From IMG/VR virus record IMGVR_UViG_2563366972_000006: a stretch of 34,196 nucleotides of DNA, one strand, 5' to 3'. The position numbers were made by a program. Each line of letters starts with the position of its first letter. Positions within the stretch are counted from its first letter, which is position 1. The DNA is from a virus (taxonomy: Duplodnaviria; Heunggongvirae; Uroviricota; Caudoviricetes). This document shows positions 15,001 through 18,000 of the stretch, piece by piece.

Positions 15001-18000
15001 GAATCCGAACCGGCCAGACGGAGGTCGCTGTCTTCACAGCTTACGAACCTGAGGAGTAAGAGACCAGGCGGGGTAAACCCCCGCCACCTCTGATGTGTCA
15101 GGCATCCTCAACGCACCCGCACTTAACCCGCTTCGGCGGGTTTTGTTTTTCATGAATAAGGGATTAATAATTTTAACTGAAATTATATTGCCTTGTTGTC
15201 CGAATGGTTAGTTAATTATTCGATATTGTTGTATTTGTTGTATTTGTTGTATTTGTTGTATTTGTTGTATTTGTTGTATTTGTTGTATTTGTTTTTATTT
15301 TTGGGCTTTATCGCTTGCGATTGCTTCGAAATAAAGATTAATTAGAATTCATCCGTTTTGAGTAGCGCGCAGGGAGAAGATGGATGGACCCTGAAAAGGG
15401 GAGAGCTATTTATCTGGAAGGATTCTGAAGATGAAAATCGAAGAATTGCATGAATTGTTTAGTGAAAATGGCCTCTATGCTGTGCGCGTTGAGAATGGAA
15501 CTATTGTCAGTCACTGCCGCATTAAATGTTTACAATCCCAGCAAAGGAAGAGCGGTGCTGTGTTAATTTATTTTGTGGATGGACTTATGGTGGACGGTTT
15601 TATTTTACGTGAAGATGAATTTGTCACATCATTACAGGCTTTGAAAGAGATAGGGCTTAAGGCTGGATTTTTTGCTTTTGAGACTGAGTGAATTCATCTA
15701 CAATTCAGCACAGGGTTGACCCCCTGCTGAGTAACACCGTGCCACCGGAGAAAACCGATGGCACATATACAACTGGTCAAACAAACTTCTTCTGGTTTAC
15801 TTCTCCCGGCGACACCGGAGAGTTGCGATTTTCTGCATCAAATCAAAATAGGCGAGTGGATACACGCTGACTTTAAGCGTGTTCGTAACTACGCATTCCA
15901 CAAGCGTTTTTTCAAACTTCTGCAACTGGGATTCGATTACTGGACTCCGATCGGAGGGGCGATCACGCCTCACGAACGAAAACTGGTGTCCGGTTTCGTT
16001 GATTACCTGTGTGAATCAGTAGGCCGGGAACATACGCCTGCTCTGAGCGAAGCCGCAGAGCAATATCTGAATACCGTTGCGACACGCAGAACCCAGGATA
16101 CGGCACTGCTCAAGTCATTTGACGCCTTTCGTGAATGGGTAACCATTCAGGCCGGATTTTACACTGAGCATTTTTATCCGGACGGTAGCCGTGGACGCCG
16201 GGCGAAATCCATCGCTTTTGCGAATATGGACGAAACCGAGTTTCAGCAGGTTTATAAATCTGTACTGAATGTGCTGTGGAACTGTATTCTGTTCCGTAAA
16301 TTTTCCTCTCCGGAACAAGTCGAAAACGTGGCCGCGCAGCTGCTGGAGTTTGCGTAATGGTGAATTTACGTAAAGCGGCGCGAGGCCAGATGTGTAAGGT
16401 CAGAATTCCTGGCTACTGCAATCACAATCCCGAAACGTCTGTACTGGCGCATTACCGACTGGCGGGAACGTGCGGAACAGCGATAAAGCCACACGATATG
16501 CAGGCAGCGATTGCCTGTAGCTCGTGCCACGATTTAATCGACGGGCGGGTAAAAACTAGCGATTACACCAAAGAAGAATTGCGCCTGATGCATGCAGAAG
16601 GTGTTTTTCGCACACAAGAAATCTGGAGAAAGGAAGGTTATTTATGATTTACCCAACGAATACAGGAAAAAGCGGAGAACACCTTCGTCTCACCACGCTG
16701 GAAAGTGTCTGGATTCAGGGAAAACTGCGCATGTGGGGGCGCTGGTCGTATATTGGCGGCGGTAAGACGGGGAATATGTTTAACCAGTTGCTGGCATCCC
16801 AAAAAATGACAAAAACAGCCATCAATGAAGCCCTGCGCAGATTGAAAAAAGCGGGAATTGATAAACCAGAGTTGGAAGCATTTTTGCGTGAGATGATCGA
16901 AGGAAAGCAAAAAAGCTGGTTAACTCACTGCACTGATGCAGAGGCACTAAAAATTGATAGTGTTATAGGTGAAGTTCTGGCGGATCATCCAGGACTACTA
17001 AATGTCCTGAGTCAGCGTTATGTGGGGCGAGGGATGAGTAAGAGAAGGATGGCCGAGTTATTAAACGAACAGTACCCAAAGTGGTGTTTTAGCACATGCG
17101 AAAAGCGAATTGCTAATTGGTTGGCTGTTGCTGAGTATGCTCTATACATTCCCATGCGAGAATCATTTGCTCAAAAAACGGCTTGATTTTTTACGCACAA
17201 ACTGCTTCAATTCCGGTACGCTTCGCAAAGCTGTATCGCGAGGCGAATTAAGCGCATGAACTTTAATAGAACCCGCCATTGTGCGGGTTTTGTTGTTTTT
17301 GTGATGTGGCATAAGAAACGACATTTAATAATCGCCTTCAAAATAAATTTGTTTATATGTTGTCGAGTATATATTAAATATACGTAACATGTTTGGATAA
17401 AATAAAAACACATAAATAAATTTACATAAATTGACGCAAAGTGTTGTTGCGATTGAATTATTAAACCGTATCATCGAAAACGGTTCTGAGGGGGAACTCT
17501 TCTTTGATCGGTGATATCGCTCCCCCGAAGAACCATTGCCGACTTAGCTCAGTAGGTAGAGCAACTGACTTGTAATCAGTAGGTCACCAGTTCGATTCCG
17601 GTAGTCGGCACCATATGCGGGTATCGTATAATGGCTATTACCTCAGCCTTCCAAGCTGATGATGCGGGTTCGATTCCCGCTACCCGCTCCAACATTTGTA
17701 ATAAGCCTTATTGTATTACAGCACTGGCGTATTTTTTATTACGTGGGAGCGGATTGTGTTTAAATGGTATTCTGTTCTCTGGCTATGATTTAAGGTCGGG
17801 TGTAGCCTCAGTGCTGAATTTTTACGGCAGCAGAATGATGCATTATCGGTGGAGATTTTGTATTTCCTTGCAGGGTCGGTGATGCATCATTCTGGTGTTG
17901 TAAACAGCACCGCAGAGGTGTTCCTCAGTGCGAGGGTGGTTTATATAGTGGTTTAACGGGGAATCACAATATCTGTTGTAGGGATGGATATTTCGGGAGG

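Follow-up and report, generated by a model that had tools for sequence, protein, structure and literature searches.

A probable moron-type cassette carrying tRNA-Thr(UGU) and tRNA-Gly(UCC), located after the Q-like gene and ahead of the lysis genes in a Rac-like lambdoid prophage

Two tRNA genes follow a Q-like gene and precede the lysis genes, all on one strand, in a Rac-like lambdoid prophage (IMG/VR record IMGVR_UViG_2563366972_000006; the whole stretch analyzed, 34,196 nucleotides, is called the window here). Judging from the sequence, we think that the pair probably constitutes a small autonomous cassette of the moron type, located inside the untranslated leader of the late operon. Both genes would encode functional elongator tRNAs, the Thr gene copying thrU, the only ACA-decoding tRNA of the host, and the Gly gene being an allele of glyT, its only GGA-decoding tRNA, and our confidence, which is somewhat better than even, attaches to the cassette explanation as a whole. 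Lambdoid morons, as reportedly described by Hendrix and colleagues, are autonomous insertions of a promoter, a gene, and a terminator. The tRNA pair resembles them in being a compact unit that has a putative promoter and terminator of its own, sits between conserved phage modules, recurs in many contexts, and is probably expressed by the prophage, but its cargo consists of RNA genes and not of a protein gene.

The tRNA genes themselves are secure. ARAGORN called exactly two across the whole window, as follows:

17538..17613, + strand: tRNA-Thr(UGU); ARAGORN anticodon tgt; Rfam RF00005, 73.8 bits, E=1.5e-14; encoded CCA
17617..17691, + strand: tRNA-Gly(UCC), U6-A67 allele; ARAGORN anticodon tcc; Rfam RF00005, 65.6 bits, E=2.8e-12; encoded CCA

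The gathering score of RF00005 is 29, the E-values were computed for the whole window, and the scores of both genes are far beyond chance. ARAGORN and Rfam thus both call the two complete cloverleaves with encoded CCA, 3 nt apart, that the original prediction had drawn from the sequence alone, and ARAGORN assigns the same isotypes and anticodons. The 3-nt spacer reads TAT. The Thr gene is identical to K-12 thrU at 76 of 76 positions. The Gly gene had been described as near-identical to host glyT apart from a compensatory acceptor-stem change, and indeed, it matches K-12 glyT at 73 of 75 positions, the differences being a C-to-T change at gene position 6 and a G-to-A change at gene position 66. 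Together they form acceptor-stem pair 6:67, where C6-G67 has become U6-A67. Threonyl-tRNA synthetase recognizes G1-C72, C2-G71, G35, and U36, and glycyl-tRNA synthetase recognizes G1-C72, C2-G71, G3-C70, U73, C35, and C36. Read from the sequence, these identity elements are kept in both phage tRNAs, the change at pair 6:67 falls outside the glycine set, and the anticodon loops are the same as the host's. An open reading frame on the + strand at 17631-17882 overlaps tRNA-Gly, has no Pfam or PHROG match, and was taken as spurious.

The fused Thr-Gly pair is real but ordinary, and it is known in kind, being routinely annotated in E. coli prophages. It is present in 870 of 5,426 complete E. coli genomes (about one in six, or ~16%), in at least 120 IMG/VR contigs, and also in prophages of Shigella, Citrobacter, and Enterobacter. 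Annotated tRNA-Thr/tRNA-Gly pairs that are 94 to 98% identical across the tRNAs occur in phi467 (Stx2f, LN997803), vB_EcoS-683R6 (ON470595), SerU-LTIIb (KU052038), and JLK-2012, and a Thr-Gly pair is mentioned for a VT2f phage (PMC5189129). In vB_EcoS-683R6, the whole 601-nt region matches at 89.6% and the order of Q, tRNAs, and holin is that of the window. The best complete E. coli genomes match this region at only ~90 to 92% identity. These annotated E. coli phages and prophages differ only in the flanking cargo; strain 401651, for example, has TerB/DUF3927, and SerU-LTIIb has LT-IIb toxin genes. Other relatives carry four tRNAs, in the order CAU, then UCU or UUU, then Thr, then Gly. Across 134 collected phage copies, the TAT spacer is found in 129, the U-A and host-like C-G alleles of the Gly gene are both common (about half of the copies are identical to the host's), and variants of the Thr gene are mostly single or D-loop changes, with cloverleaf-breaking ones rare. 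Moreover, the unit occurs in otherwise unrelated contexts, as a moron would, in several genera and preceded by genes of no fewer than five unrelated protein families (DUF1133 Q, a 228-aa family, a DNA methylase, a Q21-type Q, and others). The tRNAs remain at least 97% identical across many contexts, and the flanks switch abruptly at the cassette edges.

The original prediction had the Gly gene captured from a host tRNA operon, and a comparison with the host Thr and Gly genes found them in the K-12 operon thrU-tyrU-glyT-thrT-tufB, where Thr likewise precedes Gly in the same orientation. Unlike in the phage, tyrU and 116 nt lie between thrU and glyT, and the host flanks have zero similarity to the phage flanks. 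The phage spacer could be a deletion remnant (the T after thrU plus the AT before glyT), although 3 nt is weak evidence. Capture is plausible as an old event but not as a recent one by this phage; since the same TAT-spaced pair is found in hundreds of prophages of several genera, we conclude that it was inherited as a phage cassette.

The region ahead of the tRNAs contains the following features:

16644..17186, + strand: Q-like antiterminator gene, DUF1133 family; Pfam DUF1133, 341.8 bits; Phage_antitermQ, 29.9 bits (cutoff, 26); PHROG 753, "anti-termination protein Q-like," 8.7e-77
17183..17305, + strand: candidate late promoter and terminator module (PR'/tR'-like); terminator from scan, promoter read from the sequence
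17447..17474, + strand: putative sigma-70-type promoter of the cassette; scan score, 9/12; -35 TTGCGA, 16-nt spacer, -10 TATCAT
17482..17534, + strand: conserved 5' leader hairpin, GGTTCT-GA-GGGGG ... CCCCC-GA-AGAACC; fold, -22.1 kcal/mol; z-score, -2.4

The database matches of the first of these agree with the earlier placement of the pair downstream of Q. Immediately after the Q-like gene, a -35 element, TTGATT (17183-17188), and a -10 element, TTCAAT (17206-17211), are separated by 17 nt and may together form PR', with a predicted start at about 17218. A further -10-like element, TACGCT, is found at 17217-17222, a hairpin pairs 17219-17226 with 17238-17245, and the terminator scan found an intrinsic terminator with a stem at 17264-17295 and a T-run to about 17305. 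This segment is conserved in the displayed DUF1133-Q loci regardless of whether two tRNAs, four tRNAs, or extra insertions come next. Its motif was found in 23 of 45 two-tRNA loci and 8 of 55 four-tRNA loci, and the DUF1133-Q cluster comprises 25 and 8 loci, respectively; among the loci with enough flank, the module occurs only where the last upstream open reading frame groups with this Q (~31 of 100).

The cassette appears to have a promoter of its own. An AT-rich tract (~17340-17446) precedes a sigma-70-like element at 17447-17474 that lies ~65 nt upstream of tRNA-Thr, is separated from Q by a terminator, and is read here as a probable promoter. TTG and TAWYAT elements are kept across an alignment of 43 distinct upstream sequences, and the pattern was found, behind differing upstream genes, in 57 of the 59 two-tRNA loci with upstream sequence long enough to score; a comparable promoter precedes 59 of 71 four-tRNA loci. 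We first considered that this element might be PR' itself, with the tRNAs inside a "6S-like" promoter-proximal RNA. A separate cassette promoter is now favored because the element travels with the tRNAs behind unrelated genes, while DUF1133-Q loci share a different promoter-plus-terminator module. Downstream, the 53-nt leader hairpin stops 3 nt short of tRNA-Thr. Of 59 two-tRNA loci, 57 have this hairpin, whereas none of 71 four-tRNA loci does, and an alignment of the leader shows that its outer helix and symmetric GA/GA internal loop are conserved, with pair 28:84 changed from CG to UA in 5 sequences. The hairpin was considered as a degenerate tRNA remnant, but visual comparison with tRNAs from the four-tRNA form gave nothing convincing.

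Beyond the tRNAs, the region continues as follows:

17720..17823, + strand: conserved structured 3' trailer; single-sequence fold and alignment
17831..17894, + strand: second long hairpin (CAGAATGATGCAT ... ATGCATCATTCTG), beyond the trailer; read from the sequence
18056..18086, + strand: terminator-like hairpin and T-run in the interval between cassette and lysis genes; terminator scan
18360..18399, + strand: terminator-like hairpin and T-run just upstream of the holin gene; terminator scan
18444..19964, + strand: lysis cassette of two holins, an M15 endolysin, and an Rz-like spanin; Pfam Phage_holin_8, Phage_holin_3_7, Peptidase_M15_4, and Phage_lysis

The trailer likely is the terminator of the cassette. 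Its outer stem, in which AGCACTG (17720-17726) pairs with CAGTGCT (17809-17815), is nearly invariant across 20 aligned sequences and is followed by a T-run at 17819-17823, and inner pairs covary (109:129, AU/GC in 8 sequences; 71:102, GC/AU in 6). Intrinsic terminators do not usually have such a shape, a long-range multibranch stem unlike a simple GC hairpin, and the trailer was not called in the consensus terminator scan. The trailer is found in 43 of 54 two-tRNA and 28 of 71 four-tRNA loci, and most of the others have a different trailer, likewise with a T-run at its end. The 5' arm of the second long hairpin is conserved among related loci. A minus-strand open reading frame at 17843-18205 has no Pfam or PHROG match and was taken as spurious.

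How the cassette might work can be proposed from this arrangement. The order would be the Q-like gene, a candidate PR' with a short terminated leader (tR'), the cassette, more terminators, and the genes for holin, endolysin, and spanin, and the cassette would consist of the AT-rich tract with its sigma-70 promoter, the leader hairpin, tRNA-Thr, TAT, tRNA-Gly, and the trailer with its T-run. In a lysogen, transcription of the cassette would start at its own promoter, near 17480, and end at its own terminator, such that the lysis genes remain off. In the lytic phase, polymerase modified by Q would proceed from PR' past all of the terminators, and such read-through probably adds to tRNA expression. 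The tRNAs would be released by RNase P and 3' exonucleases, with CCA addition unnecessary. Gene dosage would thereby double for two minor tRNAs that the host encodes in single copy, and the increase may improve translation of AT-rich prophage genes, in which ACA and GGA are ~3-fold overrepresented, especially the early and cargo genes.

Codon usage is in keeping with such a benefit. Based on crude gene calls (longest ATG open reading frames) and 34 core genes of K-12, which may not be the window's host, ACA occurs 15.9 times per 1000 codons in the prophage versus 5.2 (odds ratio, 3.5; p=4e-16) and GGA 15.3 times versus 5.7 (odds ratio, 3.7; p=2e-18). Enrichment is strongest in the early and AT-rich cargo genes and not in the structural late genes; in the AT-rich cargo genes, ACA makes up 43 to 56% of Thr codons and GGA 42 to 56% of Gly codons. 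Genes rich in ACA and GGA lie at 20034-20651 and 12186-14607. The original prediction was that the tRNAs possibly support late-gene translation and that late genes should be compared with the host, and against K-12 the outcome is mixed. In the morphogenesis genes, GGA is enriched ~2.4-fold, which weakly favors the idea, but ACA, at 8.4 per 1000, is not significantly enriched (p=0.07) and the bias lies mostly in early and cargo genes. Of all phage genes, the structural late genes are the most strongly expressed. Moreover, the codon bias is one of general AT-richness and is nothing particular to ACA and GGA. AGA (7.9 versus 1.0 per 1000) and ATA (10.1 versus 2.1) are enriched as much or more, and the window has no tRNA for either.

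Phage tRNAs in this position have precedents. Lambdoid late-region clusters lie between Q and the lysis genes on the same strand and serve codons that are rare in the host and overused by the phage, and so does the pair described here, the overuse being mainly in early and cargo genes. The ileZ-argN-argO cluster of Stx phages (933W and Sakai Sp5) likewise places tRNAs for codons rare in E. coli between Q/PR'/tR' and the late genes. In the four-tRNA relatives, the first two tRNAs and 17 nt upstream, including a -10 element, are 88% identical to Stx2-phage ileZ-argN; in these relatives, the Thr-Gly pair is physically joined to ileZ/argN-like genes. The window differs from the Stx cluster in having only Thr(UGU) and Gly(UCC), which are without counterpart in ileZ-argN-argO, and in having no toxin gene after them. 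A second precedent is tRNA-Thr(UGU) directly after Q in the lambdoid/P22-like phages SfI, Sf6, ST64T, PS3, and phage 21, in which, however, the partner is tRNA-Asn(GUU) and not tRNA-Gly(UCC). For SfI, the tRNA-Thr(UGU) after Q was reported together with an ACA codon bias (PMC3636060). In the Stx2a phage of Sakai (Sp5), PR' is taken, as in lambda, to be constitutive, with termination of its transcript at tR'. The tRNAs there appear to be driven from another primary start, mapped in the interval from tR' to stx2 and ahead of the tRNAs (PMC7547250).

The original prediction was of late, Q-dependent expression. In a strict form of it, the cassette would have no promoter of its own and the tRNAs would be made solely in the Q-antiterminated late transcript to serve translation of structural and lysis proteins. 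The location of the genes between Q and the lysis cassette on the same strand is as that prediction would have it, and any transcript that reads through from a Q-controlled promoter would have to include them. Late genes also show a ~2.3-fold enrichment of GGA and GGG taken together, the two codons that tRNA-Gly(UCC) reads. We nevertheless regard exclusive dependence on Q as unlikely. The terminator at 17264-17305 and the conserved putative promoter intervene between Q and the tRNAs, the promoter stays with the tRNAs where the adjacent Q differs or is absent, early and cargo genes are far more biased than morphogenesis genes, and the Stx2a precedent points to a separate start. Thus, because the cassette appears to have its own conserved promoter downstream of a separate promoter-plus-terminator module, expression probably is not strictly Q dependent.

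Function and persistence might have other explanations, each of which we consider quite improbable. Perhaps tRNA-targeting toxins or defenses cleave, modify, or deplete the host's tRNA-Thr(UGU) and tRNA-Gly(UCC) during infection or induction, and the phage copies stand in for them. In favor of this, the Gly gene has a widespread allele that departs from the host in the acceptor stem, and other phages are known to carry tRNAs that evade anticodon nucleases. The Thr gene, however, is host identical and both anticodon loops are unchanged, and the phage tRNAs should therefore be as sensitive to an anticodon nuclease as those of the host. Moreover, about half of the phage Gly copies do not depart from the host at all, the window yielded no identified nuclease directed at either tRNA, and PADLOC returned no hits on the AT-rich cargo genes tested. 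Alternatively, the pair might have no selected function, and persist as patches of phage-host homology for lambdoid module exchange, kept intact by host gene conversion. The maintenance of host-identical sequence and the abrupt change of flanks around nearly constant tRNAs would fit a recombination junction, but cloverleaf-breaking variants are rare and conservation extends to parts that have no host counterpart. Conservation of the promoter, of the hairpin with its invariant GA/GA loop, and of the covarying trailer speaks for selection on an expressed unit.

A further reading of the cassette, which we hold to be doubtful, makes more of these conserved parts. The cassette may be a constitutive, insulated RNA operon in which the leader hairpin, whose tandem GA/GA loop is invariant, and the ~100-nt covarying trailer are themselves functional RNAs. 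Once freed by tRNA processing, the trailer could act as a small RNA of the 3'-ETS or StxS type or as a sponge. In that case, the prophage would bias decoding as well as small-RNA regulation in the lysogen in favor of its AT-rich cargo. A search of Rfam over 17150-18460, at the gathering threshold and at a permissive E-value, assigned no family to the leader hairpin, the trailer, or the second hairpin, and returned only subthreshold, chance-level matches such as mir-983, STnc100, and suhB. The conserved leader hairpin and trailer are uncharacterized RNA elements.

That lambdoid phages carry rare-codon tRNAs after Q is a decades-old idea, and as a tRNA pair, the genes described here matter little. 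As a probable self-contained mobile cassette, they shift the expectation from late expression only to probable expression in lysogens as well, and the dosage of two single-copy minor tRNAs would be doubled in roughly one E. coli strain in six. We note that the U6-A67 allele of tRNA-Gly is a natural tag by which phage-derived tRNA could be quantified by tRNA-seq.

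The tRNA gene pair behind Q is real and already known. Exactly two tRNA genes, both on the plus strand, were found by ARAGORN in the 34,196-nt window, and both match the Rfam tRNA model, for which the gathering score is 29.

17538-17613, +, tRNA-Thr(UGU); Rfam 73.8 bits, E=1.5e-14
17617-17691, +, tRNA-Gly(UCC); Rfam 65.6 bits, E=2.8e-12

Each gene encodes CCA at its 3' end and 3 nt (TAT) separate them; the original prediction was right in all coordinates, isotypes, and anticodons. Comparison with the K-12 thrU-tyrU-glyT-thrT-tufB region found the phage tRNA-Thr identical to thrU at 76 of 76 positions. 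The phage tRNA-Gly departs from glyT in two bases, with T in place of C at gene position 6 and A in place of G at gene position 66. Because these two bases pair with each other in the acceptor stem (6:67; C-G in the host, U-A in the phage), the change is compensatory, and the predicted near-identity to host glyT with a compensated acceptor stem was borne out. The change leaves all known GlyRS identity positions unaffected. In K-12, tyrU and a 116-nt spacer lie between thrU and glyT, and the host flanks are unrelated to those of the phage. The TAT spacer could be a deletion remnant, with T from after thrU and AT from before glyT, three nucleotides being weak evidence. Annotations of the pair already exist in several named phages (Stx2f phage phi467, vB_EcoS-683R6, SerU-LTIIb, and JLK-2012) and in hundreds of genomes, and tRNA-Thr(UGU) downstream of Q has been reported, with ACA bias, for SfI, Sf6, ST64T, PS3, and phage 21 (PMC3636060).

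The window holds a Rac-like lambdoid prophage, of which it covers the left two-thirds. In it, 1.26 kb of untranslated sequence separates the Q-like gene from the first holin, and the pair sits there.

1-1236, integrase
~1553-1813, RalR/RalA type I toxin-antitoxin (Rfam RalA, 207 bits)
after RalR/RalA, RecT and RecE/exonuclease VIII, then replication-region genes
14735-15059, hok/sok type I toxin-antitoxin (Rfam sok, 102 bits; 51-aa Hok-like ORF at 14904-15059)
between hok/sok and the DUF1133 gene, DUF1367 (NinB-like), then YbcO
16644-17186, Q-like gene (DUF1133)
18444-19964, two holins, M15 endolysin, and spanin
past the lysis genes, terminase and morphogenesis genes

A second antiterminator-family gene (11649-12176, +, 36% GC) lies 4.5 kb upstream of the DUF1133 gene and strongly matches Phage_antitermQ (Q21 type, 101.8 bits). 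Convergent cargo genes follow it directly, leaving no late operon that would obviously belong to it. An ORF at 15193-15345 (+), in the spacer separating hok/sok from the nin-like genes, encodes LYL repeats (LLYLLYLLYLLYLLYLLYL), which imply that the DNA there holds a short tandem repeat.

The Thr-Gly fusion is widespread. The junction pattern occurs at 10 places in GTDB species representatives (among them three in an E. coli genome, three in a Shigella flexneri genome, and others in Citrobacter braakii, Enterobacter hormaechei, and E. ruysiae) and in at least 120 IMG/VR contigs. A 63-nt junction probe matched 1,056 places, annotated as tRNA-Thr and tRNA-Gly, in 870 of 5,426 complete E. coli genomes. 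This wide spread, together with a TAT spacer in 129 of 134 collected copies, argues that the fusion is a single event of long ago. Among the 134 copies, the Thr gene is host identical in 73 and carries two D-loop changes in 28. The exact Gly sequence is host identical (C6-G67) in 61 and identical to that of the window (U6-A67) in 41, with minor variants of either pair making up others; thus, U6-A67 is a common phage allele and not a private mutation. The Thr gene of SerU-LTIIb (KU052038; locus L003, 1122-1197) has a switched anticodon (G35C, giving UCU and the label tRNA-Arg) along with further changes, among them a D-stem mismatch, and G35T gives UUU (tRNA-Lys) in two IMG/VR loci (e.g., L083, 3480-3555). 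The switched copies may be either recruited tRNAs or decaying ones. A junction on a 423-nt contig of the myxobacterium Corallococcus exercitus (NZ_RAVW01000911.1; L014; coverage, 0.67) is most likely contamination.

ARAGORN on 40 loci found either the two-tRNA form of the window or a four-tRNA form, in which a CAU gene and then a UCU or UUU gene precede Thr and Gly. The CAU gene is labeled Met by ARAGORN yet is homologous to ileZ. At 88% identity, the first two genes of the four-tRNA form and the 17 nt ahead of them match ileZ-argN of Stx2 phages, and this connects the Thr-Gly pair with the classical tRNA cluster of Stx phages.

Conserved elements surround the pair. When 43 distinct sequences from upstream of two-tRNA cassettes were aligned, a conserved AT-rich tract appeared ahead of tRNA-Thr, along with a predicted -35 element with conserved TTG and a conserved predicted -10 element, TAT(T/C)AT.

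17447-17452, predicted -35 element (TTGCGA)
17469-17474, predicted -10 element
17482-17534, +, leader hairpin, ending 3 nt ahead of tRNA-Thr
17720-17823, +, structured multibranch trailer, with a T-run at 17819-17823
17831-17894, +, second long hairpin, 3' of the trailer
18056-18086, terminator-like hairpin ahead of the holin
18360-18399, terminator-like hairpin ahead of the holin

In the leader hairpin, the outer helix (GGTTCY/RGAACC) is near invariant, a symmetric GA/GA internal loop is invariant, and the inner helix varies. Promoter pattern and hairpin occur together in 57 of 59 two-tRNA loci; among four-tRNA loci, a similar promoter precedes the tRNAs in 59 of 71, and the hairpin is absent. 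The trailer is common to most loci, with covarying hairpins inside a near-invariant outer stem (AGCACTG, 17720-17726, pairing with CAGTGCT, 17809-17815), and other loci carry an alternative, CTGCGATGATGGG...CCCGGAGTGAC within an 11-bp stem, that also ends in a T-run. Neither leader hairpin nor trailer matched an Rfam family; they are the only elements here that may be new. The trailer could simply terminate the cassette or be released as a small RNA. Where lysis genes lie downstream, a constitutive promoter has to be followed by a terminator, a role that the conserved trailer would fit.

The final ORF ahead of the cassette, clustered across loci, belongs to one of at least five unrelated protein families, among them DUF1133 Q, Q21-type Q, a DNA methylase, and a 228-aa family. 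The 120 nt directly 3' of the DUF1133 gene, in contrast, is kept in the displayed DUF1133-Q loci whatever comes next, and holds a candidate late promoter and terminator.

17183-17305, +, candidate PR'/tR' module: TTGATT, 17 nt, TTCAAT, then TACGCT (resembling a -10 element) at the predicted start, followed by a hairpin and an intrinsic terminator (17264-17305)

The motif was found in 31 of 100 loci, only where the upstream ORF groups with the Q of the window (a cluster of 33 loci), and the module may be the target site of the DUF1133 Q family. From the cassette lying behind unrelated genes while the post-Q segment follows DUF1133 Q, we infer that Q is followed by PR', a short leader, tR', the tRNA cassette, additional terminators, and the lysis genes, in that order. 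The same arrangement is described for Stx phages; there, PR' is taken as constitutive, its transcript stops at tR', and the tRNAs appear to be driven from a separate primary start of transcription that lies between tR' and stx2 (PMC7547250).

The sequence evidence best supports the Thr-Gly pair as a functional, mobile, moron-like tRNA cassette. Such a cassette would double the dosage of the host's single ACA decoder and single GGA decoder, with its own promoter probably expressing it in the lysogen and Q-dependent read-through probably raising that expression during lytic growth. Strictly late, Q-dependent expression, as originally predicted, is less well supported and appears to be contradicted by the conserved putative cassette promoter and the predicted terminator between Q and the tRNAs. 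A counterdefense role for the pair also is less well supported, as the Thr copy and both anticodon loops are identical to those of host genes. Finally, the pair might be a neutral hitchhiker or recombination patch, but promoter, hairpin, and trailer are conserved and yet have no host counterpart, which weakens that explanation too.

Codon usage fits tRNAs that supplement AT-rich phage and cargo genes in general.

Codons per 1,000 from crude ORF calls for the window, with 34 annotated K-12 core genes as the reference
K-12 core genes: ACA 5.2; GGA 5.7
Whole window: ACA 15.9 (p=4e-16); GGA 15.3 (p=2e-18)
Early/left genes: ACA 20.4; GGA 16.0
Morphogenesis genes: ACA 8.4 (p=0.07); GGA 13.6 (p=9e-6)

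The proposal that the tRNAs are tailored to late-gene translation does not fit these data, ACA being far rarer in morphogenesis than in early/left genes. In AT-rich cargo genes, ACA makes up 43 to 56% of Thr codons and GGA 42 to 56% of Gly codons. AGA and ATA are enriched at least as much as ACA and GGA, and the phage has no tRNA for either. Two overlapping cargo genes on the opposite strand (12186-14607, -, 32 to 33% GC) are very high in ACA, GGA, AGA, and ATA; they encode a 398-aa NA37 (YejK-like nucleoid-associated) protein and a 414-aa protein with no Pfam match, and neither gene had a PADLOC match. Another cargo gene (20034-20651, -, 38% GC), between spanin and terminase, weakly matches His_Phos_1 (histidine phosphatase) and uses ACA for 9 of 16 Thr codons, GGA for 5 of 9 Gly codons, and ATA 10 times.
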